Of a DNA stretch of 64,000 nucleotides, positions 11,143-60,349 are shown piece after piece. The DNA is from Elusimicrobiota bacterium (GTDB lineage: Bacteria > CAYTYR01 > UBA6262): NCBI GenBank assembly GCA_003153935.1, contig PMCA01000027.1:9405-73404 (forward strand), written 5' to 3'. Within the stretch, counting starts at the first letter, position 1. Each line of letters starts with the position of its first letter. The notes beneath the pieces are model-generated. The model was not told the DNA's origin. It searched no databases and worked only from the letters and a program-made list of their open reading frames with translations. The position numbers and the translations under genes were made by a program.

Positions 11143-11223
11143 AGTTTTAAGTTTAAAGTGATAAGTTTTAAGTTATGGTATTTCGCATTAATTTATCACT
11201 TAACACTTACAACTTAACACTGT
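11143..11223. repeat. Heptamer-array palindromic intergenic element, copy 1
   Basis: Five direct heptamers AGTTTTA/AGTTTAA/AGTGATA/AGTTTTA/AGTTATG, an AT-rich spacer (tatttcgcattaatttat), then four inverted heptamers CACTTAA/CACTTAC/AACTTAA/CACTGTA. It abuts the recO RBS. Confidence 0.6.
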
Positions 11224-11239
11224 ATTATCTTTCATGCAA

Positions 11240-12502
11240 TCAGCCGGTAAAAGTAACGATCACCAGTATCACCGATAACAATATCAGTGCCGCCGTGGTC
11301 ACCCAGGCGATAAAATTATATACCGGTCCGTTCGTGTACAAGCCCATGACCCGGCGGTCGTTGATCAGCAGCATCATGAAGATCAGGATCACCGGCAGCA
11401 AGATCCCGTTAATGGCCTGCGACATGATCATGATCGTGATCAGTGGTGCTTTCGGCCATAATATGAAGGCGGCGCCGGCTACGATCATCATCGTATAAAT
11501 GGAAATGAATTCAGGTGCCTGCTTGAAATTACGATCCACGCCTTTTTCCCAGCCGAACGCCTCGCAAACGGCATAAGCCGTGGACAAGGGTATGATGCAG
11601 GCCGAGAACAAGCCGGCGATGAACAGGCCAAGCGCAAACAGGACGGAAGCATACTTACCGGCCAGTGGCGCTAGCGCTACCGCCGCGTCCGCCGCGTTCT
11701 CGATCGGTATATGGTGGACGAACAAAGTGCCGGCGCAGGCGATGATGATAAAAAAAGCGACGATATCGGTGACCAGAGTGCCGAAAATAATATCCACTTT
11801 TTCATAAAAATAGTCTTTCACTTTAAGCTTCTTATCCACTACCGCGGCCTGCTGGTAGAATTGCATCCAGGGAGCGATGGTCGTGCCGATCACAGCGATG
11901 GCCAGGATAATGAAATTCTTGTCCAGCTGTATCGTAGGCACCGTCATGCTCTTGAGCGCCAGTCCCCAATGCGGCTTGGCCATAAATCCGGAGATAACAT
12001 AAGTAATATACATTCCGCAAGCAACGAGAAATATCTTCTCCACCGTCTTATAGGTGCCTTTCAGGATCAGGTACCAGACCACGAAAGCCGCTACGGGTAC
12101 GGAGATATAGCGGCTGATGCCGAAGATCTCCAGACTGGCCGCCACCCCGGCGAAATCGCCAACGGTATTGGCCAGGTTGGCGATAACCAGGATGATCATG
12201 GCAAAAAAAGTGATCCGGAAGCCAAAAGCACCGCGGATCAAAGCCGCCAGGCCTTTCTTGGTAACGATACCCATGCGCGCGCACATCTCCTGTACCAGGT
12301 ACAGGCAAACCGCGATCAAAGGCAGCAGCCACAGCATGGCATAGCCATAATGGGCGCCACAGACCGAATAAGTGGTAATGCCGTTAGCGTCATTATCCAC
12401 GCTGGCGGTAATGATCCCCGGACCCATCACGGCCAGGAAAATAGCCATCTTGGTCTTAAAATTTAACCATCTGTTGGGTTGGCCGGCAGTCTGCTGTTCC
12501 AC
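11240..12502 (-). CDS. mntH: NRAMP-family divalent metal (Mn2+/Fe2+) transporter
   Basis: 420 aa polytopic membrane protein; N-terminal MGPGIITASVDNDANGITTYS matches the Nramp DPGN-like signature region. Confidence 0.8.
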   Translation of the reverse strand: MEQQTAGQPNRWLNFKTKMAIFLAVMGPGIITASVDNDANGITTYSVCGAHYGYAMLWLLPLIAVCLYLVQEMCARMGIVTKKGLAALIRGAFGFRITFFAMIILVIANLANTVGDFAGVAASLEIFGISRYISVPVAAFVVWYLILKGTYKTVEKIFLVACGMYITYVISGFMAKPHWGLALKSMTVPTIQLDKNFIILAIAVIGTTIAPWMQFYQQAAVVDKKLKVKDYFYEKVDIIFGTLVTDIVAFFIIIACAGTLFVHHIPIENAADAAVALAPLAGKYASVLFALGLFIAGLFSACIIPLSTAYAVCEAFGWEKGVDRNFKQAPEFISIYTMMIVAGAAFILWPKAPLITIMIMSQAINGILLPVILIFMMLLINDRRVMGLYTNGPVYNFIAWVTTAALILLSVILVIVTFTG

Positions 12503-12517
12503 TATGATCCCTTGGCG

Positions 12518-13120
12518 TTAAAGATTATATAGATTCTTGACCAGTTTTTTGGAAATATCCAGTTTCAGGTAACGCATGCGTTTATCGTATTGCTTGACAT
12601 GGTCCCACATGATAATGTTCTCTACGATCTTCTTGCGGAATAAATTAACCAGTTTGAAGATCTCGCGTTCCGGCCCCAGGCGCAACAGCATGCTGTTGAT
12701 ATCCGCCTGGATACCGATGATCCGCAGCTTGCCTTTTTGGATGCGCAGCACCACGTCATTAACCCGGAAAAGATGTTTGCCGTAGCGGTCGACGATCTCT
12801 TCATCCATGATATCACGGTAAACAAAAAGCTCGTTATGCTCCACCGTGCCCGGGACGATTTCTTCCATAAAAACGCTCAGGTAGATGGCTTTCTTGGAAA
12901 GACAGGCCACGTCCTCCCACGGTATGACCAGCAGCTCCCGGTTCTTGAACGGGTTCAGGCCCCGCCGCCGGCTAGCCACGATCACGACCAGGTTCTTGAT
13001 CGGAGGAAACTCCTCTCCCATCAGGATAGTCAGGTCCTTGATCTTACCCACCGCAATATTGCCGGCGCTGATCACCGGCTTGCCGACAAAATCTTTATAA
13101 AAGCTATAGGGATTTTTCAC
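12518..13120 (-). CDS. PRC-barrel domain protein (hypothetical)
   Basis: 200 aa; N-terminal FVGKPVISAGNIAVGKIKDLTI fits the PRC-barrel G-x-x-V-x-x-x-G-x-x-hGkV-D motif; a second similar segment lies in the C-terminal half. Function unknown. Confidence 0.4.
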   Translation of the reverse strand: MKNPYSFYKDFVGKPVISAGNIAVGKIKDLTILMGEEFPPIKNLVVIVASRRRGLNPFKNRELLVIPWEDVACLSKKAIYLSVFMEEIVPGTVEHNELFVYRDIMDEEIVDRYGKHLFRVNDVVLRIQKGKLRIIGIQADINSMLLRLGPEREIFKLVNLFRKKIVENIIMWDHVKQYDKRMRYLKLDISKKLVKNLYNL

Positions 13121-14367
13121 TGTTCCTTCCGTATGGTCAATTTGATGATCCGCCGGCGGTTGGCCTCCACGATGACGAATTTCAGGTCCTTGTACTTTAT
13201 CTCCTCATCCTTGCGCGGCACCCGGCCCAGCAGGTCCACGACAAATCCGCTGACTGTGTTAAAATCCTCGCTCGGCAGGTTTATTTTCAATTTTTCATTG
13301 AGTTCATAAATATTCATTTTGCCATCTATTTGCATGGATCCGTCACTGAGTGGTTCCACGCCTAGGTCCTCCAGTTCGTATTCCTCCAGAATATCACCGA
13401 CGATCTGTTCCACCAGGTCTTCAACGGTCACCAGGCCGCTGGGTACGCCGTATTCGTCCACGGCAATGGCCAGGTGCAGGCGGCCCTTTTGCATCTGGCG
13501 CAGCAGCTTGTTCACTTTTTTCGTCTCCGGTACGAAATAGACCGGCCGCAGCAGGTCCTGTATAATGATCAGCTCATTGCAGCGCCAGGCGCCCAGCAGG
13601 TCCTTGACATGGATAACGCCGATAATATTGTCCAGCGTTTCTTTATAGATAGGCACCCGGGAATAGCCGGTTTCCACCACCGCGTCGATAAATTTTTCCT
13701 TGTCCAGGTTGATATCCACGCATTCCATGTCGATGCGCGGGATCATGATCGTCTTTACGACCTTATCGCCGAATTCCAGCACGCTGTGGATCATTTCCTT
13801 CTGTTCTTTTTCCAGTACGCCCTCGCGTACGCCCTCCGAAACCAGAAAGCGAATCTCCTCATCTTTGTCTAAGGGCTCGTCCTGCTTGATATTGCCGCCC
13901 AGAAATTTAACGATGGGATTGGTGATAAATATCATGGCTTTGATCAACGGGGACAGCAGGTAATGAACTATCAACAACAGGTCAATGGTCCAGGTGCTCA
14001 CCGCCTCCGGAGAATGCTTGGCCACAGTCTTGGGAATTATTTCCCCCAGGATGAGAATGATAAAAGTTATAAATACCGTAGAGATAACCGCCGCCCAACC
14101 CTCGGTCATATGATGGTTATTGGCAAAATCTACCGCCACGTAAGTAGCCAGCGCCGCGGCGGAAAGATTGACGATGGTATTGCCCACCAGTACCGCCGCC
14201 AGAAGTTTATTGGGATGATCGGCCCACATCTGCAGCGATTTCAATTTCTTTTCTTCTATTAACGACTTTATCGCAAACCGGTCCAGACTGGTCAAAGCCG
14301 TTTCCGTAGCAGCGAAAAAGAAACTGGCCAGGATAAGGATCGCTAAGACGATTAAGCTAATAAACAT
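13117..14367 (-). CDS. corC: HlyC/CorC-family transporter (CNNM/DUF21 TM domain, CBS pair and CorC_HlyC C-terminal domain)
   Basis: 416 aa; N-terminal DUF21 with FFFAATETALTSL; two CBS-like segments; C-terminal transporter-associated domain. Confidence 0.8.
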   Translation of the reverse strand: MFISLIVLAILILASFFFAATETALTSLDRFAIKSLIEEKKLKSLQMWADHPNKLLAAVLVGNTIVNLSAAALATYVAVDFANNHHMTEGWAAVISTVFITFIILILGEIIPKTVAKHSPEAVSTWTIDLLLIVHYLLSPLIKAMIFITNPIVKFLGGNIKQDEPLDKDEEIRFLVSEGVREGVLEKEQKEMIHSVLEFGDKVVKTIMIPRIDMECVDINLDKEKFIDAVVETGYSRVPIYKETLDNIIGVIHVKDLLGAWRCNELIIIQDLLRPVYFVPETKKVNKLLRQMQKGRLHLAIAVDEYGVPSGLVTVEDLVEQIVGDILEEYELEDLGVEPLSDGSMQIDGKMNIYELNEKLKINLPSEDFNTVSGFVVDLLGRVPRKDEEIKYKDLKFVIVEANRRRIIKLTIRKEQ

Positions 14368-14381
14368 AATACCCCTTAAAG

Positions 14382-14407
14382 ATAATTATGAATAACTCAA
14401 AACTTTT
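14382..14407. repeat. Degenerate 2-unit remnant of the heptamer element
   Basis: Minus strand reads AGTTTTGAGTTATTCA, identical to the first two units of copy 2 (AGTTTTGAGTTATA...), directly upstream of the corC RBS. Confidence 0.35.
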
Positions 14408-14409
14408 AT

Positions 14410-15117
14410 TCAAAGCGGGCTCATCATCCGGAAAATGAACAAGGTTACGACCATGCCGATGATCGCGCCTCCGGCCACTTCCCACCAGGTGTGGATCCTG
14501 GCCCGTACCCGGCTGTGCGCCACCATGAAAGCCAGGATGAACACGAACAAGGCGATAAAACTGTTCTGGGTCATTAACGACACTGCCGTGCAAACGCCGA
14601 AGGCAAAAGCGCTATGGCCGCTGGGCATACCGCCCCAGAGCGGCCGGCCCTTGCCGAAATAGGCTTTGGCGATGATCACGGTTATAAAAATGATCACCAG
14701 GCAGGTGATCATGATGTATTCCGGTACCGCCTTGATCCTTAAAATGACCGGTATCATGTTCGTGCCCAAATAGCGCTTGCCGAAGATCAGATAGGACACG
14801 ACGATGGCGTTGGCCGAGGCGAAGAACACGGCACCGGCGGCGATATCCTTGGCCAGACGGGCCGCCGGGTGATAAGTATCGGTGACCAGATTAACCAGGG
14901 CTTCGATGGCCGTGTTGAACATTTCCGCCAGCAAGACCAGCATGATGGTGATCGCCAGCATGACCCACTCGATCCGGTCCAAGCGCACAAATAAACTGAA
15001 AAAGAAGACAAAAGCCGCCAGCCCCAAGTGGATGCGCATATTGCGCTGGGTTTTGGCCACATAGATTATGCCTTCGATAGCAGCGTTGAAACTTTCCATG
15101 ACATTGCGTGATTTCAT
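14410..15117 (-). CDS. dgkA: Fusion protein: DgkA-family lipid kinase (diacylglycerol/undecaprenol kinase) N-terminal domain plus PAP2-superfamily phosphatase C-terminal domain
   Basis: Residues 1-~120 carry the DgkA motif EMFNTAIEALVN. Residues ~125-235 carry PAP2 motifs KAYFGKGRP (KX6RP), PSGHS and SRVRARIH (SRX5H). Confidence 0.75.
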   Translation of the reverse strand: MKSRNVMESFNAAIEGIIYVAKTQRNMRIHLGLAAFVFFFSLFVRLDRIEWVMLAITIMLVLLAEMFNTAIEALVNLVTDTYHPAARLAKDIAAGAVFFASANAIVVSYLIFGKRYLGTNMIPVILRIKAVPEYIMITCLVIIFITVIIAKAYFGKGRPLWGGMPSGHSAFAFGVCTAVSLMTQNSFIALFVFILAFMVAHSRVRARIHTWWEVAGGAIIGMVVTLFIFRMMSPL

Positions 15118-15530
15118 TTATTCCCCAATACGGCTTTAAGTACTTTTTTTTCTTCCGCGCGCATTTTCTTTCTGGCCGCCGCTTTCAGGTCGTCGTAACC
15201 CAACAGGTGCAGTATCCCGTGGGTAGTTAAGAGAGCGATCTCTTCCCGGTAGGAATGCCCGTATTCCCGGGCCTGGCGTCTGGCGGTGCCGGTGCAGACA
15301 AAAACATCACCCAGTGCCACCACCGGCAAGTCGCTCTCCCGCTCGACCGGACTGGCGATAACATCAGTGGCGTAATCCCGTTTAAAGAACTGCCGGTTGA
15401 GCCGGATCATCTCCCGCTCACCGACGAAATAAAGACCCAGCTGGTATTCTTTGCTACGCGGCAGATAATGTCCGATGATATGCGCGGCTATTTTTCTGAC
15501 CAGCGGATAAGGAACCGTCGTTCTTTTCAC
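15114..15530 (-). CDS. ybeY: Endoribonuclease YbeY (rRNA maturation factor)
   Basis: 138 aa with the H-x-x-x-H-L-x-G-Y-D-D zinc motif (THGILHLLGYDD). Confidence 0.88.
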   Translation of the reverse strand: MKRTTVPYPLVRKIAAHIIGHYLPRSKEYQLGLYFVGEREMIRLNRQFFKRDYATDVIASPVERESDLPVVALGDVFVCTGTARRQAREYGHSYREEIALLTTHGILHLLGYDDLKAAARKKMRAEEKKVLKAVLGNK

Positions 15531-17002
15531 TTGGTTTCACGGCCTTCAGTGGGATATTCGACCCGGCTGTGGAACATGCCGCTGAGTATATGAGAAAATT
15601 GCTCGCCGATAATATGCAGGTCTTTCAGGCTGAGATCGCATTCTTCCAGCTGGCCGTCAACGAACTTGTTATTGATAATGCGGGTCACCAGCTCCTGCAC
15701 ATGCGCGTAACTGGGATCTTCCAGGGTGCGCGAAGCCGCTTCCACCGCGTCCGCCAGCAGGATGATAGCCGCTTCCCGGCTCTGCGGCTTGGGACCCGGA
15801 TAACGGAATTGCTCTTTGGTGGCTTCCGTATCCTCCTCCAGCGCCCGCTGATAGAAAAAATATACCAGGCTGGTGCCGTGATGCTGCTCGATGATATCGA
15901 TGATCTCCTGGCTTATCTTGTATTGCGCGGCCAGTTCCACCCCTTCTTTGACGTGGGAAAGCACGATCAGGCTGCTCATGCTGGGAGATAGGTCATCATG
16001 ACGGTTGTAGCTGTCCTGGTTCTCAATATAATATTCCGGCTTGGCCAACTTGCCGATATCGTGGTAGTAGCCCCCGACCCGGGCCAGAAGGGAATTGGAA
16101 CCGATAGCCGCCGCGGCGCTCTGGGCCAGGTTGCCCACCAGCAAGCAGTGGTGATAGGTCCCCGGGGCCTCAACCATCAGGCGTTTCAACAAGGGCTGGT
16201 TCAAGTCGGACAGTTCCAGTAATTTAATATTGGAGGAAATGCCGAACATATGTTCGAAATACGGCAGGAAACCGATGCTCAGGATACCGCATAAAAAGCC
16301 GTTGGCGATACCCCAGAGGCAATTATAGGCGATGACCTCCATCCTGGTAATCTGCAGTAAGGCCGAGAAACAGATTATACCGACGGCGTTGGCCACGCTG
16401 ATCAATAGTCCCGAGCGGATCAGGTCCGAGCGCTGTTGCACGCTGGAGGCGCTGAAAATACCCACCAGGCCGCCGATCAATTGGACGGTAAAAAGGTTAA
16501 GATCGTTATGATAGATGACACCGATCATGATGTCCAGCACCACCGTCATCAGTATGGCCAGGTCGATATCCACCAGGATGGTCATCAGGATCGAAACCAT
16601 GCCCAGCGGTATCAGGTAACCGCTTAAATGCATCTCCTGAAAGATCTTGGCCAGGGCGATGATCAGGATGCTGACCGATTCCAGGATGATCAGGTCGTTA
16701 TTGGATTCAAAAATATGGCGGGCGTAGCGGTATAAGTAAGCTCCCAGCAGGATAATGAAGCCCAGGCTGATCACTATATATCCGGAAACAAGACGCAGGG
16801 TGATGATCTCGAAACTGGACATGATGATCAGGACCGCCAGGAAAGTGAACAGCACGAACAGCCAGCGCGGCGCCGCCAGGGAAGACTGAAAAATACTCTT
16901 ACCCTCCCCGGTCAGATGCCTCTGCCGGTGTTCGTAGCGCCGGCTTATTTTCAACATCAGTACCAACATTTTCCTTATGGATCTCTGCAAGCGGGCTATC
17001 AT
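15527..17002 (-). CDS. pgpH: 7TM receptor with intracellular HD hydrolase domain (PgpH-type c-di-AMP phosphodiesterase family)
   Basis: 491 aa; N-terminal multi-TM region; C-terminal HD domain with HHCLLVGNLA and YYHDIGK. Confidence 0.8.
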   Translation of the reverse strand: MIARLQRSIRKMLVLMLKISRRYEHRQRHLTGEGKSIFQSSLAAPRWLFVLFTFLAVLIIMSSFEIITLRLVSGYIVISLGFIILLGAYLYRYARHIFESNNDLIILESVSILIIALAKIFQEMHLSGYLIPLGMVSILMTILVDIDLAILMTVVLDIMIGVIYHNDLNLFTVQLIGGLVGIFSASSVQQRSDLIRSGLLISVANAVGIICFSALLQITRMEVIAYNCLWGIANGFLCGILSIGFLPYFEHMFGISSNIKLLELSDLNQPLLKRLMVEAPGTYHHCLLVGNLAQSAAAAIGSNSLLARVGGYYHDIGKLAKPEYYIENQDSYNRHDDLSPSMSSLIVLSHVKEGVELAAQYKISQEIIDIIEQHHGTSLVYFFYQRALEEDTEATKEQFRYPGPKPQSREAAIILLADAVEAASRTLEDPSYAHVQELVTRIINNKFVDGQLEECDLSLKDLHIIGEQFSHILSGMFHSRVEYPTEGRETK

Positions 17003-17988
17003 TTGGCCCCCTTAAATCCCGAGCCTTCGTATTCTTCATAAGCTTTTATGATCTTCTTGACCAGCTGGTGGCGCACCACGTCGCGGCCAGTGAAGTAAAT
17101 GAATTTAATACCGCTGATGCCTTTGAGAATATGGCTGATCTGCACCAAGCCGCTCATCTTCTTATTCTGCAGGTCTATCTGGGTAACGTCGCCGACAATG
17201 ACCGTGGTTGTTTCAAAACCTAACCGGGTCAGGAACATCTTCATCTGCTCCGGGTTGGTATTCTGGGCTTCATCCAGTACGATAAAAGCGTCATTCAGTG
17301 TGCGCCCGCGCATATAAGCCAGCGGCACGATCTCGATCACGCCCTCGTCCCGCAGGTGATGGAACTCCTCCGCGCCCATGATCTCATAAAAGGCGTCATA
17401 CAGGGGCCTCAGATAAGGGTCCACTTTTTCGTACAGGTCCCCCGGCAGGAATCCAAGCTTCTCCCCGGCCTCCACCACCGGCCGGGTCAAAACAATGCGG
17501 TTGGCCTCCTGAGCGCGTAAAGCGGCGACCGCCATGGCTACGGCCAGGTAAGTCTTGCCGGTGCCGGCCGGGCCGATACCGAATACCAGGTCGTATTTTT
17601 TCATGGCCTTGATATATTTTTTCTGGGTCTGGCTGCGGGCGGTGATCTTCTTGCCCTTGATCGTATAGCAGACCGCTTCCTTATCAACTTCACCGGCTTC
17701 GCCCGGCTTGGCTTCCACTGCCGCGGCCTGGTAGAGCGGATTTTGCAGCATACCGCGGACGCCCTTGCGGTCGACCCGGTAGCCGCGGCGGATCTGATCG
17801 GTCAATTCCTGGATCATCCGATAGGCCTGGCTGACCTTGGCTTTGTTGCCCTTGATCATCAGGGTATTGCCGTAAGTGACCAGGTTAACGTCGAACTCGT
17901 TCTCGACCATGCGCAGGTTCTCGTCATGCGGACCGAAAACGTTCAGCATTTCCTCATTATCCTGTAAATATATCGTTTTAGTAACCAT
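16999..17988 (-). CDS. phoH: PhoH-like ATPase
   Basis: 329 aa; Walker A GPAGTGKTYLAVAMAV; the phoH-pgpH-ybeY-dgkA order is a widely conserved operon. Confidence 0.88.
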   Translation of the reverse strand: MVTKTIYLQDNEEMLNVFGPHDENLRMVENEFDVNLVTYGNTLMIKGNKAKVSQAYRMIQELTDQIRRGYRVDRKGVRGMLQNPLYQAAAVEAKPGEAGEVDKEAVCYTIKGKKITARSQTQKKYIKAMKKYDLVFGIGPAGTGKTYLAVAMAVAALRAQEANRIVLTRPVVEAGEKLGFLPGDLYEKVDPYLRPLYDAFYEIMGAEEFHHLRDEGVIEIVPLAYMRGRTLNDAFIVLDEAQNTNPEQMKMFLTRLGFETTTVIVGDVTQIDLQNKKMSGLVQISHILKGISGIKFIYFTGRDVVRHQLVKKIIKAYEEYEGSGFKGAK

Positions 17989-17989
17989 A

Positions 17990-19747
17990 TTACCTCAGTT
18001 TGATATGCAGCTCGCGCAGTTGTTTCTCGCCCACCTGTCCGGGGGCGTCGGTCATCAGGTCCACCGCTTTTTGCGTTTTCGGGAAGGCGATCACTTCCCT
18101 GATAGAATCCTCGCCCAGCATGATGGTAGTCAGGCGGTCCAGCCCCGGAGCGATCCCGCCGTGGGGCGGCGCGCCGTATTCAAAAGCTTCCAGCAGGAAG
18201 CCGAACTTCTCCTTGGCCTCTTCCGGACCGATACCCAGGGTGGAGAAAATCTTCTCCTGTATCTCCTTGCGGTGGATACGGATACTGCCCGAGGCGATCT
18301 CGGTTCCGTTCAGGACCAGGTCATAGGACTGGGAACGCATCTGGCCGGGATCGGTATCAAAATATTCCACATCGTCGTAATTCGGCGCGGTAAACGGATG
18401 GTGCTCGCTTTCCCAGCGTTTCTCTTCCGCGTTATACTGGAAGAGCGGGAAATCCACCACCCAGGAAAAATTGAATTCTTTTTTATTGATCAGGTTGAGT
18501 TTGTCTCCCAGGTAGGAACGTAAACGACCCAGGCTCTCGGCCACCACTTTGGGCGCGTCAGCGATGATCAGGATCATGTCGCCGTCTTTGGCTCCCATCA
18601 GCTCTTTGATGCTGTTCAGGACTTCCGCCTTAAAGAATTTCGCGATTGGTGATTCTATCGTCCCGTTATTTATCTTGAACCAGGCCAGACCTTTGGCGCC
18701 GAATTCATTGGCTAATTTAGTCAGGTCGTCGATCTCCTTGCGCGAATAGCCGGCGATACCGGGCACACAGATGGCTTTGACCACGCCCTGGTTCTTTATT
18801 ATCTCGGCAAACACTTTAAAATCCGCCGTAGCCACCAAGCTGGAAATATCCTTAAACTCCAGTCCGAACCGCAGATCGGGCTTGTCACTGCCGTATTTAT
18901 CTTTGGCTTCTTTATAGGTCAGACGCGGGAACGGGGTCTTTAGATCGATGGACAGTGTTTTCTTGAACACTTCTGTCATCAGGCCTTCGCACAAGGCGAA
19001 GATATCTTCCTGATCAACGAAAGACATCTCCATGTCTATCTGCGTGTGCTCCGGCTGGCGATCCGCCCGCAGGTCCTCGTCGCGGAAACATTTGGCGATC
19101 TGAAAATATTTCTCCATCCCCGCCACCATCAATAATTGCTTGAATAATTGCGGTGACTGGGGCAAGGCGAAGAAATTACCCGGGTGCACCCGTGACGGCA
19201 CCAGGTAGTCGCGGGCCCCTTCCGGCGTGGATTTAGTCAGGATCGGCGTTTCGACTTCGATAAAACCCTGGCCGTCCAGGTAATCCCGGATCACTTTTAC
19301 CGTGCGGTAGCGGAACATTATATTCTTTTTCATCCGCGGGCGGCGCAGGTCCAGGTAGCGGTATTTCAGGCGCACCTCCTCGCTGATCTCCGTCTCATCA
19401 GCTATTTCGAAAGGCAAGGTCTTGGCCGGGTTCAGCACTTCCAGCCCGGAGGCGGCCACTTCGATCTCGCCGGTAGGCAATTTAGGGTTTTCCGTGCCGG
19501 CCGGGCGCTGGCCCACTTTACCGGATATATTGACCACGAATTCACTGCGCAGTTTTTCCGCTTCCTGGAAAATATCCGCGCTCATCTGCTGGGGATTGAA
19601 AACTATCTGGGTCAAACCCTCCCGGTCACGCAGGTCAAAAAAGATCAACCCTCCATGATCGCGCCGGCTGTGTATCCAGCCGACCAGTTTTACTTCCTTA
19701 TTCACATCCGTCTTACGCAATTGTCCGCAATTATGAGTCCTGATCAC
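17990..19747 (-). CDS. aspS: Aspartate--tRNA ligase
   Basis: 585 aa; N-terminal OB fold (VKLVGWIHSRRDHGGLIFFDLRD); class II motifs (FRDEDLRADRQPEHTQID...). Confidence 0.92.
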   Translation of the reverse strand: MIRTHNCGQLRKTDVNKEVKLVGWIHSRRDHGGLIFFDLRDREGLTQIVFNPQQMSADIFQEAEKLRSEFVVNISGKVGQRPAGTENPKLPTGEIEVAASGLEVLNPAKTLPFEIADETEISEEVRLKYRYLDLRRPRMKKNIMFRYRTVKVIRDYLDGQGFIEVETPILTKSTPEGARDYLVPSRVHPGNFFALPQSPQLFKQLLMVAGMEKYFQIAKCFRDEDLRADRQPEHTQIDMEMSFVDQEDIFALCEGLMTEVFKKTLSIDLKTPFPRLTYKEAKDKYGSDKPDLRFGLEFKDISSLVATADFKVFAEIIKNQGVVKAICVPGIAGYSRKEIDDLTKLANEFGAKGLAWFKINNGTIESPIAKFFKAEVLNSIKELMGAKDGDMILIIADAPKVVAESLGRLRSYLGDKLNLINKKEFNFSWVVDFPLFQYNAEEKRWESEHHPFTAPNYDDVEYFDTDPGQMRSQSYDLVLNGTEIASGSIRIHRKEIQEKIFSTLGIGPEEAKEKFGFLLEAFEYGAPPHGGIAPGLDRLTTIMLGEDSIREVIAFPKTQKAVDLMTDAPGQVGEKQLRELHIKLR

Positions 19748-21021
19748 CCGTTATACTCCTCGCTTTTCGCAGTTTTTAGGAATTGGCTCAGTTCGTCCAG
19801 CTTTATATCTTTTTGTTCCTTGGTTTGCATGTTACGCAGGGTCACGCTGTCTTTTTTTAGTTCCTCTTCTCCCAGTATGGCGGTAAACTTCGCTCCGCTC
19901 TGGTCCGCAAGCCGCATCTGGCTCTTCAAGCTCTTGTTCTCGAAAACCGCTTCTACTTTAATTCTCTGTTGCCGTAATTCACGTATTACCCCAGCCGCCC
20001 GGTTTTGCGCCTGTTCTCCCAGCAGGGCGAAGAAAATATCGATCCTGTTCCCAGGAGTCGCGACCGCTTTTTGTTTCTGCCGGACCTCGCTCACTCTTTC
20101 CAGCCCCAAGGCGAACCCCACGGCCGGCATGGGCGGGCCGCCCAGTTCCTGCACTAATTTGTCATATCTCCCGCCCGCGGCAATAGTATCCTGGGCTCCC
20201 AGGTTCTCGGATTTTATCTCGAACACGGTGCGGGTGTAGTAATCCAGACCGCGCACCAGGTATTTATCGATAATAAAATTAACTTTTTCTTTTTTCAGGT
20301 CGGCTTCGATCTCAGACAGGTTGGTTTTGCAGGCGTCACACAGCCAATCCTGCATCGCGGGGATACCGAAGATTATTTCCCGGCAGGAATCCACCTTGCA
20401 GTCCAGCACCCGCAGCGGGTTCTTTACCGCCCGCCGTTGGCAATCGCCGCATAATTTACCCGTCTGGTCCTGCAAGTATTTTTTAAGGACTTCCCGGTAA
20501 GCCGGCCGGCAATCGGCACAGCCGACGCTGTTCAAGCATACTTTCAACCCCGTTAAACCGATAGCGGCGAAATAATCCACGCACCAGAGGATAATCTCCA
20601 GGTCCCGGCGGTAATTATCCGATCCGACGCATTCAGCGCCAATCTGGTAGAACTGGCGGTAACGCCCCGCCTGCGGCCGTTCATAGCGGAACATCGGCCC
20701 CAGGTAATAGAGCTTGGCGATATTGCTCTGGACCAGCAGGTTTTGTTCGATCGCTGCGCGTATCACGCCAGCGGTCCCTTCCGGGCGCAGGGTGAGGTTA
20801 CGGCCCTTTTTGTCCTGGAAAGAATACATTTCTTTTTCCACGATATCGGTATCCTCCCCGATACTGCGGTTAAACAGCGCTGATTCCTCGAAAATGGGCG
20901 TGCGTATTTCACTAAAGCCGTAAGCCTTAAGCAAGGCTACGGCTGTGTTTTCCAAATATTGCCAGAGCTCGATCTCGGGGGAAAAAACATCCCTGGTCCC
21001 GCGTACGCTTTTGAATTTCAC
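19744..21021 (-). CDS. hisS: Histidine--tRNA ligase
   Basis: 425 aa; MKFKSVRGTRDVFSPE..., class IIa motifs and a C-terminal anticodon-binding domain. Confidence 0.9.
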   Translation of the reverse strand: MKFKSVRGTRDVFSPEIELWQYLENTAVALLKAYGFSEIRTPIFEESALFNRSIGEDTDIVEKEMYSFQDKKGRNLTLRPEGTAGVIRAAIEQNLLVQSNIAKLYYLGPMFRYERPQAGRYRQFYQIGAECVGSDNYRRDLEIILWCVDYFAAIGLTGLKVCLNSVGCADCRPAYREVLKKYLQDQTGKLCGDCQRRAVKNPLRVLDCKVDSCREIIFGIPAMQDWLCDACKTNLSEIEADLKKEKVNFIIDKYLVRGLDYYTRTVFEIKSENLGAQDTIAAGGRYDKLVQELGGPPMPAVGFALGLERVSEVRQKQKAVATPGNRIDIFFALLGEQAQNRAAGVIRELRQQRIKVEAVFENKSLKSQMRLADQSGAKFTAILGEEELKKDSVTLRNMQTKEQKDIKLDELSQFLKTAKSEEYNG

Positions 21022-21031
21022 TCTTACTCCT

Positions 21032-21952
21032 TTACAGCCGGTAAGTTACGCTATCCACGCCACGGTTGGTGGCATTTTCCAGCACCTGCAGCGCCTGTTC
21101 CCGGATATGGCTCAGCTGCTCCGTATTCTCTACCCGTCCCTGGCCATTGAATACTTCCAGCATCAATACGTCCTTATAACCGATATCCTGCAGGCTGGAC
21201 ATGATCCCCGGCCAGTAGATCTGGCCGTTGCCCGGAGTTAAATGGTCGTCATACTGGCCATGATTGTCGGACAGGTGCAGGGCGATGATCCGCTTGTTGA
21301 GATTTTTCAGCGCCTCAACCGGGTCCTGCGCCAGGTTGGCGTGGGAAGTATCGAAACACACTCCCACCGTCGGCGACTGCAATTCGTCCACCAGACTGTT
21401 CAGGTCTTCTACACGCCCGCCCAGCAAATGCGGCAGGAGGTTCTCCACCGCCAGCCTGATCTTCTTCAGCCGGCAATACTCCACCAGCTCTTTCAAACTT
21501 TCCCGGCACTTGGCCAGCCGCCGGTTCTTTTCGTCCCAATTATTCAGGTCAAAGGGCTGGATGCTGGGATGCACGATGGCGATCTCGCCGCCCAGGTATT
21601 CCAGGACATCGATTCCCTTCTTGAATTCCCAGATGGCATGCACGCGCGTGCGCTCATCCTGACAGGCGATATCCAGCTCCGGGAAGACCGGCAGGTGCAG
21701 GGAATGGACATGGATATTGAATTCCCGCAGCTTATTACGCAAATTGTAGGAATGGATCTTCTGCTGCCAGATCTCCAGTCCTTCTTTCAGGAAAAAGTTG
21801 GCATGCTGGGTACCCAGGTTATTAGCGGAACCCCACTCCATCGTATCCAGGCAGATCTCAATGATCTCGAACCCCGCCTCTTTGATAAACGGCAGATGCC
21901 CGATCAGGTCCTGGTCATGGAACAATCCGGTAGAAATCCCCAATTTTACCAC
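21032..21952 (-). CDS. Sugar phosphate isomerase/epimerase (xylose isomerase-like TIM-barrel family)
   Basis: 306 aa; AP-endonuclease-2/TIM-barrel family signature segments (EIIEICLD..., VHPS..., ALHLSDN); GTG start with RBS GAGGGGAG. Confidence 0.6.
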   Translation of the reverse strand: MVKLGISTGLFHDQDLIGHLPFIKEAGFEIIEICLDTMEWGSANNLGTQHANFFLKEGLEIWQQKIHSYNLRNKLREFNIHVHSLHLPVFPELDIACQDERTRVHAIWEFKKGIDVLEYLGGEIAIVHPSIQPFDLNNWDEKNRRLAKCRESLKELVEYCRLKKIRLAVENLLPHLLGGRVEDLNSLVDELQSPTVGVCFDTSHANLAQDPVEALKNLNKRIIALHLSDNHGQYDDHLTPGNGQIYWPGIMSSLQDIGYKDVLMLEVFNGQGRVENTEQLSHIREQALQVLENATNRGVDSVTYRL

Positions 21953-21996
21953 ACGAACTCCCCTCGGTTCAGGTTGGTAAAACAGCCCCTAAATTC

Positions 21997-23391: not shown

Positions 23392-23442
23392 AATCTGGGT
23401 ATTTACCCTCGCGTTTTACGTGACGTTTTCTAAATTATGTTA

Positions 23443-23470
23443 TTATATCGCTATTGACGGATTAATGCAA
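23443..23470 (-). promoter_or_regulatory. Sigma70-type promoter (TTGCAT-N16-TATAAT) for the 464-aa hypothetical gene
   Basis: Minus strand reads TTGCATtaatccgtcaatagcgaTATAAT, about 50 nt upstream of the ATG at 23391. Confidence 0.5.
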
Positions 23471-23491
23471 CAAATTTATATAAGCAAAAAC

Positions 23492-23574
23492 AGTTTTAAG
23501 TGTTAAGTGAAAAGTGTTAAGTTATGGTGATTTTTTACCACAACTTAAAACTTATAACTTATAACTCAAAACTG
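23492..23574. repeat. Heptamer-array palindromic intergenic element, copy 2
   Basis: Plus strand: AGTTTTA AGTGTTA AGTGAAA AGTGTTA AGTTATG, spacer gtgattttttaccac, then inverted units CAACTTA AAACTTA TAACTTA TAACTCA AAACTGC. It lies between the GT4 stop and the promoter above. Confidence 0.6.
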
Positions 23575-23577
23575 CTT

Positions 23578-24672: not shown

Positions 24673-24688
24673 GTTGGCCTTTCCGGTA

Positions 24689-42587: not shown

Positions 42588-42610
42588 TTCTCCCCCTAAA
42601 ATCAGACCAC

Positions 42611-42672
42611 GGTTAGCGGATAACGGATGACGGCTAAATTAACCGTCGTCTGTCATCTGTCGTCCGTCATCC
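42611..42672. repeat. Heptamer-array palindromic element with a different unit sequence (GGATGAC/GGACGAC), copy 5
   Basis: Minus strand: GGATGAC GGACGAC AGATGAC AGACGAC GG, spacer TTAATTTAG, then inverted CCGTCATCC GTTATCC GCTAACC. It lies between the lpxD stop and the lpxC-fabZ RBS (GGGGGAG). Confidence 0.5.
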
Positions 42673-44342: not shown

Positions 44343-44440
44343 CCTTCAAAATAGTTGCGAGTTTCGAATTCCGCGTTTCGAGTTATGGAATATATATTTA
44401 TACATTAACTCGCAACTCGTAACCCGCTAACTCGAAGCTG
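44343..44440. repeat. Heptamer-array palindromic intergenic element, copy 3
   Basis: Plus strand: AGTTGCG AGTTTCG AATTCCG CGTTTCG AGTTATG, spacer gaatatatatttataca, then inverted TTAACTCG CAACTCG TAACCCG CTAACTCG. It lies between the bamA stop and the skp RBS. Coordinates are approximate. Confidence 0.6.
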
Positions 44441-46937: not shown

Positions 46938-46967
46938 TTAGTCCTCCTCTATGTATTTTTTTATTTT

Positions 46968-46995
46968 ATCATAAAACCGGGCTATTTCCAAGCAA
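46968..46995 (-). promoter_or_regulatory. Candidate sigma70 promoter (TTGCTT-N16-TATGAT) for bamA
   Basis: Minus strand reads TTGCTTggaaatagcccggtttTATGAT, about 30 nt upstream of the bamA start. Confidence 0.35.
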
Positions 46996-47013
46996 TTTAT
47001 CCCTAATTTTCCA

Positions 47014-51864: not shown

Positions 51865-51880
51865 CTTATCCTTCAAAATA

Positions 51881-51905: not shown

Positions 51906-51921
51906 ATTCATTTAACGGAAA

Positions 51922-54396: not shown

Positions 54397-54412
54397 ATTT
54401 TTTTACTCCTTG

Positions 54413-55288: not shown

Positions 55289-55298
55289 TTTAATCTCC

Positions 55299-58750: not shown

Positions 58751-58796
58751 GCTAACTCCTTTATCTGCCCTATTGGGAACGACAATATATTAAATT

Positions 58797-58826
58797 ATTA
58801 TAGTGCATCTGTCCGACGGATGTCAA
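58797..58826 (-). promoter_or_regulatory. Consensus sigma70 promoter TTGACA-N18-TATAAT upstream of lysS
   Basis: Minus strand reads TTGACAtccgtcggacagatgcacTATAAT, about 45 nt upstream of the lysS GTG start. Confidence 0.6.
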
Positions 58827-58845
58827 TAGAATAAAACGGAAGGGT

Positions 58846-59637
58846 TTACCGGGGGGAGTTGAATCGGATGTTGATCATCTTGGGCGTGGTGGTGGCCCCC
58901 GCTTCCACGGGTTCCGGCTCAAGACCCAAATACGGCGCCGGCTGTGATATCCTGCCTACCCGGCTCAGGCCATTGATAAATTGCCTATAATGTTCTTCTT
59001 GCATCTGCAGGAATAGTTCCTGGCTATCGTTCTGCCGGAAGTATTTTTCCCGGTCAGCTACCTGCATTTCGATGGTATAAGGAGAAGCTGGAACGACTTG
59101 TGAAACCGCTGTGGCGCCGCAGGAGTCCTTAGCTGGCGCCAGGCTGAAACTATCGGCGCTTTCCTGGATCGCTCCTCCAGCCAGAGCCGGTGCGGGAGCT
59201 TCTTTCTTTTTCTCTGCCCCGCCTTTAGCCATAGATGTTTTTTCTAAAGCCCTCACCGAATTATTAACCACCGGCGCCAGCAGAGGCGCTATTTCCGTGC
59301 GGGTTGGGCTCGTTATTTTAGTGGCGTATTTGTTAATGGATACCGCGATCAGCAGTACCGCCATGGCAATAATTGCCGCTGGGACCGGCTTCCAGCTAAA
59401 GATCCCCCAAACGGGTTTACTGGCTAGTTTTCTCTCGATACCTTCCCAAATACCGGCGGGCGGTTCTACCTCTTCGAGTTCTCCCACCATCTTAATGGTC
59501 TGGCGGAGAGCGGCCAAGTCCTGCCGGCATTGGGCGCAGCCTGGCAGATGTTTATCTACCCGCTTCTTTTCTTCCGGAGAGCATATTCCATCTATATAAA
59601 AGGAAAGCAATTCGGTTACATGCTTATTGTTATCCAT
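58846..59637 (-). CDS. Zinc-finger (zf-HC2) membrane anti-sigma factor
   Basis: 263 aa; N-terminal H-x3-C-x2-C motif (HLPGCAQCRQDL); a single TM (VPAAIIAMAVLLIAVSI); overlaps the ECF sigma gene by 8 nt. Confidence 0.7.
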   Translation of the reverse strand: MDNNKHVTELLSFYIDGICSPEEKKRVDKHLPGCAQCRQDLAALRQTIKMVGELEEVEPPAGIWEGIERKLASKPVWGIFSWKPVPAAIIAMAVLLIAVSINKYATKITSPTRTEIAPLLAPVVNNSVRALEKTSMAKGGAEKKKEAPAPALAGGAIQESADSFSLAPAKDSCGATAVSQVVPASPYTIEMQVADREKYFRQNDSQELFLQMQEEHYRQFINGLSRVGRISQPAPYLGLEPEPVEAGATTTPKMINIRFNSPR

Positions 59638-60220
59638 TTTGAATCACTCCCTTCAGTTTATCTTTTAATTCCAGCCGCGCCCGGGCCAGTCGGCTTTTCA
59701 CCGTGCCCAAATTGCATCCGGCTGCCGCGGCGATCTCGTCATAAGAGAACCCTTGTATATCGCGCAGGATTATCACTTCCCGATGTTCGGGGTTTAAAGT
59801 GGCAATAGCTTTCTGCACTTTGTCCCTTATCTCGCCCGCCTCCGCCTGCTTGGAGGGATCGGGACAACTTTTATCCTGTACTTCCACGGTCATTTCATCA
59901 TCTTCCGTTTCTATGGTCCGGTCCAAGGAATCGATATAGGGTTGGGAACGCCAACTGCGCAGCTTATTCTTGCAGGTATTGCAAGCGATGTAATAAAGCC
60001 AGGTGGAAAAACTGGCTTCTTCCCTGAAGTCTTTTATGCCTTTGAAAACCCGCACAAAAATATCCTGGGTCATATCTTTAGCCTCTTCCTGGTCGTTTAA
60101 GAAGCGGAAGCAGAGATTAAAGACCTTCTTCTGGTATTTAGCCACTAATTGGGAAAAGGCAACCTGGTCGCCCTTCTTGGTTAGTTCCACTAACCTGGGA
60201 TCTGCCGGATCTACTACCAA
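59630..60220 (-). CDS. rpoE: ECF-subfamily RNA polymerase sigma-70 factor (RpoE-like)
   Basis: 196 aa; region 2 (VFNLCFRFLNDQEEAKDMTQDIFVRVFK) and region 4 (REVIILRDIQGFSYDEIAAAAGCNLGTVKSRL). Confidence 0.85.
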   Translation of the reverse strand: MVVDPADPRLVELTKKGDQVAFSQLVAKYQKKVFNLCFRFLNDQEEAKDMTQDIFVRVFKGIKDFREEASFSTWLYYIACNTCKNKLRSWRSQPYIDSLDRTIETEDDEMTVEVQDKSCPDPSKQAEAGEIRDKVQKAIATLNPEHREVIILRDIQGFSYDEIAAAAGCNLGTVKSRLARARLELKDKLKGVIQNG

Positions 60221-60233
60221 GACTCTCCCCTTG

Positions 60234-60262
60234 TATAGACAACTTTAGTCATAAAAAGTTCC
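60234..60262 (-). promoter_or_regulatory. RpoE-type ECF promoter GGAACTT-N16-TCTATA (likely autoregulatory)
   Basis: Minus strand reads GGGAACTTtttatgactaaagttgTCTATAcaagggg, about 15-45 nt upstream of the sigma factor start. Confidence 0.6.
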
Positions 60263-60271
60263 CTTAAAAAC

Positions 60272-60349
60272 AGTTACGAGTTTCGGGTTCCGAGTTTCGG
60301 GTTTTTGAATATTTAATTTATACCTTAACTCGTAACGCGTAACTCGCTA
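60272..60349. repeat. Heptamer-array palindromic intergenic element, copy 4
   Basis: Plus strand: AGTTACG AGTTTCG GGTTCCG AGTTTCG GGTTTTT, spacer gaatatttaatttatacc, then inverted TTAACTCG TAACGCG TAACTCG CTAACTT. Its right arm overlaps the prfB stop codon. Confidence 0.6.

Follow-up and report, generated by a model that had tools for sequence, protein, structure and literature searches.

Inverted pairs of heptanucleotide repeats, such as STRR and the comparable sequences of Xanthomonas and Geobacter, are a known class of bacterial element, none of which has a proven function. Their placement invites comparison with REP elements, which are often located a few nucleotides from the stop codon, at gene 3′ ends, and rarely between divergent genes. 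REPs show no internal 7-nt periodicity; their head is conserved and of the GTAG type, and RAYT transposases are associated with them. In cyanobacteria, the hairpin-forming 7-bp repeats known as STRR are found between hupS and hupL, and the roles suggested for them are transcript stability, translational coupling, and termination (PMC2670836). Rehm et al. (2015, PMC4692102) described GGGAATC heptamers in Xanthomonas as convergent inverted pairs, with 70 to 75 per genome, and in Geobacter metallireducens, the "class 3" putative global-regulator sites consist of five tandem MTYCTGA heptanucleotides and form eight pairs (PMC2700814). Finally, MacGregor (2015, PMC4679880) reported TAACTGA direct repeats in Beggiatoaceae, cyanobacteria, and Bacteroidetes.

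Architecture of the elements in the window

The window, that is, the whole stretch of DNA that was analyzed, comprises 64,000 nucleotides of contig PMCA01000027.1 from an Elusimicrobiota bacterium. All of its genes are on the minus strand. About 11 intergenic gaps exceed 40 nt; five of them hold the elements listed below, and ordinary G+C-rich terminators are present in others.

Copy 1, 11143..11223, minus strand: element between an Nramp-family gene and recO
Copy 2, 23492..23574, minus strand: element between a glycosyltransferase gene and an unknown 464-aa gene
Copy 3, 42609..42672, minus strand: element between lpxD and an lpxC-fabZ fusion gene
Copy 4, 44343..44434, minus strand: element between bamA and skp, with units CGNGUUR
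Copy 5, 60272..60345, minus strand: element between prfB and an ECF sigma factor gene, with units CGNGUUR
Remnant, 14382..14407, minus strand: remnant or seed of two units (AGUUUUG AGUUAUU), flanked by a dgkA-PAP2 gene and a CNNM/CorC gene

The original prediction had placed heptamer arrays at these five sites, and they are real, as confirmed by the sequence, by Tandem Repeats Finder, and by motif counts. Tandem Repeats Finder returned period-7 arrays in both arms of copy 1 (11143-11174/11193-11221), copy 2 (23492-23522/23542-23573), and copy 3 (42609-42637/42645-42671), in one arm only of copies 4 (44407-34, period 7) and 5 (60273-60303, period 14), and no further period-7 rows in the rest of the window. 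The pattern AGT-N4-AGT-N4-AGT was matched 11 times, always in copies 1 and 2, against an expectation of 0.12, and GTT-N4-GTT-N4-GTT was matched 8 times, always in copies 2, 4, and 5, against 0.51.

One common architecture of direct heptamers, spacer, and inverted heptamers joins the five copies and, as had been claimed, is conserved while the unit sequence is free. Copy 1 has 5 + 4 units of AGT(T/G)NTA and a loop of about 20 nt, and copy 2 has 5 + 5 units, its palindrome running on into an A-tract and a U5 tract. All 19 units of these two copies keep AGT intact, and positions 4-5 are variable. Copy 3, with 4 + 3-4 units of GGAYGAC/AGAYGAC (sense strand) and a loop of about 9 nt, has a unit (GGAUGAC/GGACGAC) that is unrelated to those of the other copies, and at least three unit types are found within this one genome. 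The loop and inner units of copy 4 are homologous to those of copy 5 and of the orthologous element in a relative (L006), and CCAUAACU is common to copies 1, 2, and 4. The remnant does match the 5′ end of copy 2, with AATAAAAG and GTTTTGAGTTAT identical and a 2-nt gap between them. The predicted hairpin potential was also borne out, as folds of the gene (minus) strand reached −25.5 to −39.9 kcal/mol, with z-scores of −2.7 to −8.0 (copy 1, −25.5 kcal/mol, z −4.0; copy 2, −39.9 kcal/mol, z −8.0; copy 3, −32.3 kcal/mol, z −3.8; copy 4, z −2.7; copy 5, z −3.2). The stems are built of 5-6 bp runs broken every 7 nt by non-wobble mismatches. By itself, the remnant does not fold (z = +0.8).

Two junction subtypes had been described, and both are present. 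The sequence upstream of recO is ...AACTATTCTTTGGAG and that upstream of skp is ...AACTATTTTGAAGGAGG; copy 1 is followed by AUUCUUUGGAG and the recO start at 11126, copy 4 is followed by AUUUUGAAGGAGG and the skp start, and copies 1, 3, and 4 all abut a Shine-Dalgarno sequence. The junctions of copies 2 and 5 read ...AACTGTTTTT, with the U5 tract of copy 5 lying 3′ of the element, and continue into promoter-like sequence (TTGCAT-N17-TATAAT at 23470-23442 and GGAACTT-N17-GTCTA at 60262-60236, respectively). Given that both of these copies have U5 at their end and promoter-like sequence next to them, they probably also act as transcription terminators. A hairpin is common to the elements and to intrinsic terminators, and these two copies add an A-tract, the U5 tract, and the promoter-like sequence; in contrast, the stems in the window are about 30 bp long and A+U-rich, with a mismatch every 7 nt and large loops, and their polarity is opposite to that of the window's ordinary terminators, in which the 5′ arm is C-rich. 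A simple terminator scan of positions 10000-25000, which hold copies 1 and 2 alone, called neither. The claim that every copy sits at a transcription-unit boundary is plausible only for the copies with promoter-like sequence and does not extend to the bamA>skp and lpxD>lpxC spacers, which are inside a conserved gene cluster.

Distribution, placement, and turnover

The element class proves widespread among bacteria and phages, and some phages have an element at nearly every gene junction. In 1.3 Mb from many phyla, with block-shuffled sequence as the control, period 7 was the only non-coding repeat period (not a multiple of 3) to exceed the control (24 arrays versus 0 at a strict threshold). 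An inverted partner accompanied 23 of 42 intergenic period-7 arrays, versus 2 in the control, and none of the arrays with periods of 6, 9, or 12. Metagenomes and viral contigs yielded 284 distinct AGT-type elements. In 194 of them, an ORF is present on either side at a distance of no more than 120 nt; 126 of these ORF pairs are co-directional, 44 convergent, and 24 divergent. The gap from the stop codon to the arm has a median of 3 nt, and the placement is REP-like, with a 3′-end distribution. Sense-side U-tracts 3′ of the 3′ arm are rare, with at least 6 T in 10 nt for 2 of 126 elements; therefore, the class as a whole is not a sense terminator. Arm length peaks at five units with no steady decay, and the two arms differ by at most one unit in 221 of the 284 elements. 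The inter-arm distance modulo 7 shows a weak phase preference (23-55 elements per class, chi-square p = 0.005) and hence no sign of a fixed register across the loop. On both strands, it is the AGT-containing arm that lies 5′ of the loop (at least 120 versus 3 matching stretches in viral contigs, or at least 40:1). An RNA-strand signature is absent: 22 elements contain 48 sense versus 51 antisense G·U pairs, and the counts are 230 versus 255 in the 126 co-directional ones, in which fold energies are also equal between sense and antisense (p = 0.59).

Several of these observations could be accounted for if each arm were a row of four to six sites for a protein with a 7-bp DNA or 7-nt RNA step, for instance one ribbon-helix-helix dimer per heptad, as in omega/ParB of pSM19035, or, on RNA, cold-shock or S1-type OB folds or a HutP-like ring reading NAG-N4. 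Read-through, mRNA fate, or local DNA topology would then depend on occupancy of the sites. The period fixed at 7 with most unit positions free, the invariant AGT, and the peak in arm length agree with such an array, the polarity would follow readily from asymmetric protein sites or from a factor catching the first-transcribed arm, and the absent G·U bias fits a DNA-level role. Precedents also exist: omega recognizes 7-bp WATCACW heptads in direct or inverted orientation and requires at least four contiguous ones (PMC9499535); S1, Csp, and CsrA have been proposed for TAACTGA repeats (PMC4679880); and IHF/HU has been proposed for the Geobacter sites (PMC2700814). Nevertheless, we consider a binding array unlikely. 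A search free of sequence criteria yielded 48 arrays with no universal core (AAG/CTT in 46%, AGT/ACT in 38%), several unit types coexist in one genome, sister lineages have unrelated units at one and the same spacer, arm distances are only weakly phased, and most sites are in tight intercistronic or convergent spacers rather than promoters. A Pfam scan of the larger window ORFs (about half of all ORFs, with some 20 unscanned or known only by matches to strain or relative copies, and those below 90 aa, the size of ribbon-helix-helix proteins, outside its scope) revealed no candidate binder.

At lpxD-cluster loci, the elements fill the spacer, with the 5′ arm starting from 19 nt before to 22 nt after the stop codon, so that it may overlap the gene end, and the 3′ arm ending 3-24 nt ahead of the start codon. 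The bamA>skp spacer holds a two-arm period-7 element in seven of eight relatives (fold z-scores of −1.4 to −3.6), with differing units that are unrelated between sister lineages. At lpxD>lpxC, (ATTTAGA)n has five units in L004, L212, and L213 and three in L214, an exact 14-nt difference, and a comparison of L214 with L004 shows that array length changed in place, with the flanks still alignable. A comparison of L006 (13275-13400) with L009 (8455-8515) shows complementary insertions in both L006 arms. No unit-number variation was found among the near-identical strains compared. Another relative, L215, has no element anywhere in the same operon, and the window is without several elements that its relatives have; therefore, the elements are dispensable.

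Indels in multiples of 7, symmetrised arms, gain and loss among relatives up to the empty operon of L215, and the missing strand signature would all be expected of an element without a function of its own, a by-product of a 7-nt replication-slippage bias and template switching within palindromes that is tolerated only where harmless, after stop codons and away from promoters. As relayed in PMC4679880, Mrazek (2007) found heptanucleotide repeats to be the most abundant long simple repeats in most prokaryotic genomes and proposed polymerase slippage as their cause. We find this explanation doubtful, however, given the occupancy of the bamA>skp spacer in seven of eight lineages despite complete unit turnover, the arm-length peak at five without decay, the polarity, the constancy of unit number among near-identical strains, and the phages with an element at nearly every junction.

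Spread as a mobile non-autonomous palindrome of the REPIN/MITE type, with a transposase encoded elsewhere and the heptamer rows as its binding sites, would be in line with the genome-specific unit families at several loci (the loop and inner units shared by copies 4 and 5, CCAUAACU in three copies, and the ATTTAGA type at three spacers in both L212 and L214), as well as with the presence in phages and the avoidance of divergent spacers, as by REPs. Such mobility is quite improbable, since inspection by eye found no target-site duplications or defined ends, array length changed in place between alignable flanks, there is no conserved GTAG-type head, and the Pfam scan of the larger window ORFs (about half) showed no transposase or RAYT gene.

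A proposed post-stop stem-loop reading

The roles suggested originally, namely a regulator-binding array, an RNA structure, or a slippage-prone palindrome, were the right candidates. Our best reading, which we hold tentatively and with less than even confidence, is that the elements are REP-like stem-loops that follow a stop codon and arose by 7-nt slippage and arm symmetrisation. Judging from the comparative data, replication slippage would lengthen or shorten the arrays in 7-nt steps and copying between arms would keep both alike, so that the unit sequence would drift or be replaced, whereas period, two-arm layout, and an arm length near five units would persist. Starting right after the upstream stop codon, the element would be co-transcribed with the upstream gene and form a long, mismatch-punctuated stem-loop that may act like a REP element, blocking 3′ exonucleases, marking an mRNA segment boundary, and insulating adjacent cistrons. 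In copies 1, 3, and 4, the stem could bring the upstream stop codon and the downstream start to the foot of one helix, and ribosomes terminating upstream might melt its base beside the downstream ribosome-binding site.

This stem-loop reading is supported by an architecture far above chance, the period-7 enrichment, and the post-stop placement, and the exact 14-nt array difference, the complementary L006 insertions, the near equality of the arms, the bamA>skp persistence, and the terminator-like flanks of copies 2 and 5 appear to point the same way. The transcript stability and translational coupling proposed for STRR hairpins offer a precedent (PMC2670836). Against it stand the lack of an RNA-strand signature, the rarity of sense U-tracts, the periodic non-wobble mismatches in the stems, the dispensability of the elements, and the terminator scan without a call for copies 1 and 2. 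Moreover, pairing alone does not demand an invariant AGT, and hairpin stability leaves the strict polarity unexplained.

Comparison with described repeat families

The original prediction was right that the family is not REP, BIME, or a classical MITE, and Rfam gave no match for the elements even at E ≤ 5. Like REPs, BIMEs, and REPINs, the elements are genome-specific palindromes at gene 3′ ends, in co-transcribed or convergent spacers and scarce between divergent genes, but neither the GTAG-type head nor the RAYT link was seen for them in the window (larger ORFs scanned). Omega (ParB_pSM) shares the 7-bp step, the direct and inverted units, and the need for at least four contiguous ones (PMC9499535), whereas the operators and parS of pSM19035 are contiguous heptads that overlap promoters and have a fixed WATCACW; among the 19 units that make up copies 1 and 2, only two fit it (AGTGATA, reverse complement TATCACT). 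The TAACTGA repeats have an AACT/AGTT core in common with the elements and lie a few nucleotides upstream of start codons, and many metagenome elements carry NAACTGR units in the 3′ arm; the window units, however, are not TAACTGA, and in the BOGUAY Beggiatoaceae genome, these repeats are nearly all one-armed (169 direct sets versus one indirect).

The closest likenesses are found among the heptanucleotide pairs. STRRs are also tandem 7-bp hairpin-capable units between co-transcribed genes or just past a gene 3′ end, but they belong to another phylum and differ in unit sequence (CCCCAGT, TTGGTCA, and CAACAGT), and their arrays are often long and single, whereas those of the window are short (4-5 units per arm), paired, and polar. 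The Xanthomonas repeats are likewise heptameric, intergenic, inverted pairs with stem-loop or cruciform potential, although their unit is G-rich and G-quadruplex-capable, while the window units are A+T-rich with an AGT core, or CGNGTTR. The Geobacter sites, read as putative IHF/HU binding sites, match in their five heptamers per site, opposite-strand pairs, variable distance, and intergenic location, e.g., proB/proA (PMC2700814), but G. metallireducens also has 8-nt and 9-nt paired classes, whereas period 7 alone was enriched in our survey. Thus, the suggestion of an undescribed kind does not hold, as inverted heptanucleotide pairs were already documented in Xanthomonas and G. metallireducens, and STRR hairpins in cyanobacteria. 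The five sites are one genome-specific family in an already described class of inverted heptanucleotide tandem-repeat pairs, the same element type as in cyanobacteria, Xanthomonas, and Geobacter.

Architecture and flanks of the five window copies

The elements are described in minus-strand orientation, since that strand carries every long ORF of the window; each copy is an intergenic palindrome in which two inverted arms of tandem heptamers surround a loop. The architecture that had been predicted, with four to five direct heptamers, a spacer, and three to five reverse-complement heptamers, is present in five intergenic gaps, and the proposed two-unit remnant matches copy 2 at its 5′ end.

Heptamer palindromes of the window and their neighbour genes
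11143-11223, minus strand: copy 1, in the gap from Nramp to recO
14382-14407: two-unit remnant
23492-23574, minus strand: copy 2, in the gap from a glycosyltransferase gene to an unknown gene
42609-42672, minus strand: copy 3, in the gap from lpxD to lpxC-fabZ
44343-44434, minus strand: copy 4, in the gap from bamA to skp
60272-60345, minus strand: copy 5, in the gap from prfB to an ECF sigma gene

Tandem Repeats Finder places the window's arrays of period 7 (or 14) at these five sites only, and both AGT-N4-AGT-N4-AGT (11 observed, 0.12 expected) and GTT-N4-GTT-N4-GTT (8 observed, 0.51 expected) have every one of their window matches within the elements. Sense-strand RNA folding of the five copies gave -25.5 to -39.9 kcal/mol (z -2.7 to -8.0), which bears out the hairpin potential originally claimed, with stems made of helices of 5-6 bp that are broken every 7 nt. 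No Rfam covariance model matched anywhere in the window, whether at gathering scores or at a cut-off of E <= 5. The features of inverted heptanucleotide-repeat pairs were found, namely tandem 7-nt units in at least three to four copies at all five sites, a nearby convergent reverse-complement array with stem-loop potential in the window folds, and an intergenic location (5/5 copies) with retention among related genomes at varying unit number. The window family is real and well defined, and it belongs to a known kind that is functionally unexplained.

The units of copies 1 and 2 follow AGT(T/G)N(T)A, with AGT invariant in 19/19 and positions 4-5 variable, and those of copies 4 and 5 follow CGNGTTR, these two copies also having their loop and inner units in common. 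The sequence CCAUAACU opens the 3′ arm in copies 1, 2, and 4, and the copy 3 unit, GGAYGAC, is unrelated to those of the other copies. Copies 2 and 5 end at the 3′ side in ACUGUUUUU, with U5 adjoining the stem; the promoter-like TTGCAT-N17-TATAAT then follows copy 2, and GGAACTT-N17-GTCTA follows copy 5 upstream of the ECF sigma gene, a motif of the kind typical for auto-regulated ECF promoters. Shine-Dalgarno sequences directly adjoin copies 1, 3, and 4. We tentatively favour the reading that the window elements are REP-like stem-loops at gene ends, in which termination would be an additional role of copies 2 and 5, and copies 1, 3, and 4 would be intercistronic stems holding the stop and start codons at the foot of one helix. 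An intrinsic-terminator consensus scan of 10000-25000, which covers copies 1 and 2 only, called neither copy.

Several other features of the window were recorded. An ECF sigma factor and zf-HC2 anti-sigma gene pair (58846-60262, minus strand) lies beside copy 5, and an LpxC-FabZ fusion of 447 aa (41244-42587, minus strand; Pfam LpxC and FabA) is kept in every close relative that was fetched. Conventional G+C-rich terminators stand in other gaps, for instance ACCCCGAU..AUCGGGG followed by U6 (7230-7202, minus strand) and GGCGCCCCGC..GCGGGGCC followed by UCUAUUUU (51904-51875, minus strand).

Persistence and turnover among relatives

Close relatives, with 72-80% identity in LpxD, were fetched through exact-protein look-ups, and their contigs are designated by L numbers. 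The same strain, with identical elements, is present in other metagenomes. A search of related genomes agreed with the original prediction that the architecture is conserved while the units vary, as a two-arm period-7 element was found at the bamA-skp junction in 7/8 lineages, with differing units.

Units of the bamA-skp element
CGAGTTN: window and L006
GCTCGTA: L009
TAGCGTA: L212
AAGATCA: L213
TGTA type: L214
AATTCNN: L004

The orthologous spacers have fold z values of -1.4 to -3.6, and in the relative L215 the spacer is only 23 nt long and the whole operon is without any element. Between lpxD and lpxC, a one-armed (ATTTAGA)n array has 3 units in L214 as against 5 in three relatives, with alignable flanks and a difference of exactly 14 nt. 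An lpxA-lpxI element is common to L009 (8455-8515) and L006 (13275-13400), and relative to L009, the L006 copy has gained mutually complementary G+C-rich insertions, one in each arm, which is direct evidence that the arms have been symmetrised. Thus, in this clade the elements have a persistent architecture with turnover of units, change length in 7-nt steps, have symmetrised arms, and are individually dispensable. The arrays may have been built by 7-nt slippage together with such arm symmetrisation. A hypermutable contingency locus was considered and set aside, as the unit number is unchanged among near-identical strains (99.98-100%).

That the elements are mobile, in the manner of REPINs or MITEs, is the less likely reading, and we regard it as improbable. 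Relatives do differ by whole elements (L215 being empty) as well as by whole heptamers (the 14-nt indel). Inspection of the flanks by eye recognised no target-site duplication, and a Pfam scan of the larger window ORFs, about half of those in the 64 kb, brought up no RAYT (Y1 transposase).

Other intergenic sequences were noted in the same relatives. A second dispersed repeat (L006 12414-12494 and 15294-15391; L214 13260-13398) consists of a G+C-rich hairpin, CCTGCCTGCCGGTAGGCAGG, followed by ATAGCTAATATC. CATTCG/AATTCG arrays precede lpxA and lpxB (L006 15294-15391, L004 11520-11616, L212 5735-5834), and since their period is 9-10 nt, period 7 is not shared by every intergenic array of the clade. 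The tamB-bamA spacer (window 46937-47014, L004 5808-5894, L006 6749-6810, L009 1847-1927, L213 6494-6575) has a promoter-like sequence, CTTGGAAA..N..TATGATAAAAT and then ..ACGCAAAGGGGGATTA, which is common to all relatives and comes without a heptamer array. Unusually long spacers with other palindromic sequence occur at L213 9725-10000 (276 nt) and L214 1448-1782 (335 nt), and the matching gaps of the window and the remaining relatives are short; these long spacers may represent insertions of another kind of element.

Class-wide rules and possible functions

A profile search of genome contigs with LpxD gave at least 80 loci from many phyla, with at most 58% identity among the matches listed, the nearest named relatives among these being Omnitrophota MAGs (<=58%), and these loci, which did not include the close relatives, served as a cross-phylum control set of 1.3 Mb. 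Period-7 arrays exceeded the block-shuffled control at each of three thresholds (24 vs 0, 37 vs 2, and 64 vs 10), and in a lag-p self-match scan of equal stringency over this set, 7 was the only period not a multiple of 3 to exceed the control. An inverted partner lies within 110 nt of 23/42 intergenic period-7 arrays, as against 2 in the control, and the arrays of period 6, 9, or 12 in the same 1.3 Mb have 0 such partners. Examples come from Acidobacteriota, Nitrospinota, Nitrospirota, Planctomycetota, Verrucomicrobiota, Omnitrophota, and Deltaproteobacteria. In a Thermoanaerobaculia MAG (L078 9730-9961), a canonical terminator plus (GAAGGCA)5 stands upstream of lpxD in two tandem copies, and in the second copy (TGCCTTC)6 completes a stem of about 40 bp (-86 kcal/mol).

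A search pattern made up of four AGT-phased units and, after a gap of 10-40 nt, four ACT-phased units, for which we estimate a chance expectation below 1 from the count of specified bases, had at least 120 matches in metagenomes and at least 120 in viral contigs. In four tailed-phage IMG/VR contigs (L259, L284, L229, and L271), (CAGTRAT)n..AAAGGCAAAAA..(ATYACTG)n recurs at nearly every gene junction, with 11 elements within 7.2 kb in L259 (60-7207). Throughout each of these repeat-dense contigs the asymmetric loop is oriented with the genes. L284 codes for head-tail adaptor and tail-completion proteins, and when a repeat-dense contig was compared with GenBank phages by BLAST, the matches, to Brevundimonas phages, were all weak and uninformative.

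These elements are polar. In viral contigs, the AGT arm comes first in at least 120 stretches as against 3 for the mirror pattern with ACT first, a ratio of at least 40:1, and among 25 paired elements, found mostly without a sequence criterion and including the five window copies, the 5′ arm has more AG than CT in 22 cases and more CT than AG in none. Polarity is the other way round in the window's ordinary terminators, whose 5′ arm is C-rich and whose 3′ arm is G-rich. Reversed elements are rare (L212 7556-7666 and 8597-8721, L009 10290-10435, L337 3581-3644, L338 2063-2147); in them, a CT- or ACT-type arm leads and the AG- or AGT-type arm adjoins the downstream gene. Among the matches listed, which comprise 284 distinct AGT-type elements, the arm length peaks at 5 units (133/284), followed by 4 (98) and 6 (26), and the two arms are within one unit of each other in 221/284. 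Close flanking ORFs, where present on both sides among these matches, are co-directional in 126 cases, convergent in 44, and divergent in 24, and the median gaps are 3 nt from the stop codon to the 5′ arm and 14 nt from the 3′ arm to the start codon.

It is possible, although we consider it doubtful, that the elements are a heptad-phased binding array, a reading that agrees better than the REP-like one with the polarity, the constancy of AGT in phase, and the five-unit optimum of the arms. A single universal sequence-specific binder is weakened by the lack of a universal core trinucleotide, as AAG/CTT is present in 46% and AGT/ACT in 38% of the 48 arrays that were collected irrespective of sequence. 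A protein lattice running through both arms is likewise unsupported, because the phase between the arms modulo 7 is only weakly preferred (23-55 per class, p = 0.005; 284 elements among the matches listed). The elements could also be a tolerated by-product, which we hold to be rather unlikely, and which fits both their gain and loss and the lack of any strand signature: in the co-directional elements among the matches listed, G·U pairs number 230 on the sense and 255 on the antisense strand, and the fold energies of the two strands are equal (p = 0.59). Given this symmetry of G·U pairs and energies, a strand-specific structured RNA is unsupported. In the same co-directional set, U-tracts occur on the sense side in 2/126 and on the other side in 23, and because sense-side U-tracts are so rare, we reject the canonical intrinsic terminator as a general function, keeping it for copies 2 and 5 only. 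An all-frame stop-codon barrier, in which period 7 would cycle through the three frames, fails as a general rule, as families such as GAAGGCA hold no stop codons; at position 7, ahead of AGT, C is the most frequent base (0.39), and T is found in 0.25 of units.

What the analysis shows of the class is its architecture, its unique period of 7, its polarity, its size optimum, its post-stop position, the turnover of units within a persistent layout, and its lack of any strand signature. Unlike architecture, polarity, size, and position, the mechanism is something we infer. The REP-like, binding-array, by-product, and mobile readings overlap because origin and function are addressed separately, and none of the four accounts for the polarity.

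A further proposal, which we think unlikely, is that heptad-phased palindromes with a polarity, built as (N-AG-N4)x5, loop, (N4-CU-N)x5, are a recognition platform common to bacterial phyla and their phages, and that some conserved machine with a step of 7 nt or 7 bp reads them. Such a machine could be an oligomeric protein that binds RNA or DNA, or else the apparatus of transcription or translation. Approaching from either side, it would encounter the arm that contains purines first, and the occupancy of the arms, not the stability of the hairpin, would set read-through, mRNA decay, or ribosome hand-over. If true, this proposal would account for the surplus of heptamer repeats that has been remarked in prokaryotes since 2007, and for the cyanobacterial STRR repeats.

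Significance and comparison with known systems

The inverted-pair form of heptamer repeats has been noted repeatedly, never with a function, and the window contributes a clean family from a lineage that is uncultivated. The analysis is of value chiefly for its class-wide rules and for the test designs that these permit, the directly testable rules being an exact period of 7, arms of about five units, a start about 3 nt past the stop codon, an AGT arm that comes first by at least 40:1, no RNA-strand bias, an architecture that outlasts its units, and a dense occurrence in some tailed phages. If a reader of the arrays exists, it would be a widespread and unrecognised control layer at gene ends; if none exists, the arrays are a striking trace of a slippage bias of 7 nt.

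The original prediction recognised no described REP, BIME, or MITE family, and this holds for REP in that the arms are tandem arrays, not imperfect palindromes of 20-40 nt, and have no GTAG-like head; inverted heptanucleotide pairs, however, were already on record, and the cyanobacterial STRR repeats have been so since about 1990. The class nevertheless resembles REP/REPIN elements in being extragenic, located at gene 3′ ends, and scarce between divergent genes. There may also be a resemblance to recognition sites of primase, RNase E, or Myb.

As MacGregor relates the findings of Mrazek 2007, heptanucleotides rank first in abundance among the long simple repeats of most prokaryotic genomes, a pattern whose suggested cause was polymerase slippage (PMC4679880). 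In Xanthomonas, there are 70-75 pairs of convergent inverted GGGAATC repeats (PMC4692102), and in Geobacter metallireducens MTYCTGA heptamers occur in fives at paired sites, with IHF/HU binding as a guess (PMC2700814). The 7-bp STRR repeats of cyanobacteria form hairpins between hupS and hupL, for which roles in transcript stability, translational coupling, or termination were proposed (PMC2670836). The omega ribbon-helix-helix protein of pSM19035 is a proven binder with 7-bp steps and requires at least four contiguous heptads (PMC9499535). In the accounts given by these sources (PMC4679880, PMC4692102, PMC2700814, PMC2670836, and PMC9499535), the function of chromosomal heptamer elements is established in none. 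The omega consensus WATCACW is fitted by only 2/19 units of copies 1 and 2, and its operator heptads are contiguous and located at a promoter, whereas the window arms are split by a loop, with three copies away from promoters; no ribbon-helix-helix gene was found among the larger window ORFs scanned with Pfam, which made up about half and were of at least 90 aa, such proteins being under 90 aa. Lastly, Beggiatoaceae have TAACTGA direct repeats just 5′ of start codons, with S1, Csp, and CsrA as suggested binders (PMC4679880). The 3′ arm units of the window are NNAACUN/NNCACUN or AAACUCG, none being TAACTGA, but many members of the class in metagenomes are NAACTGR.
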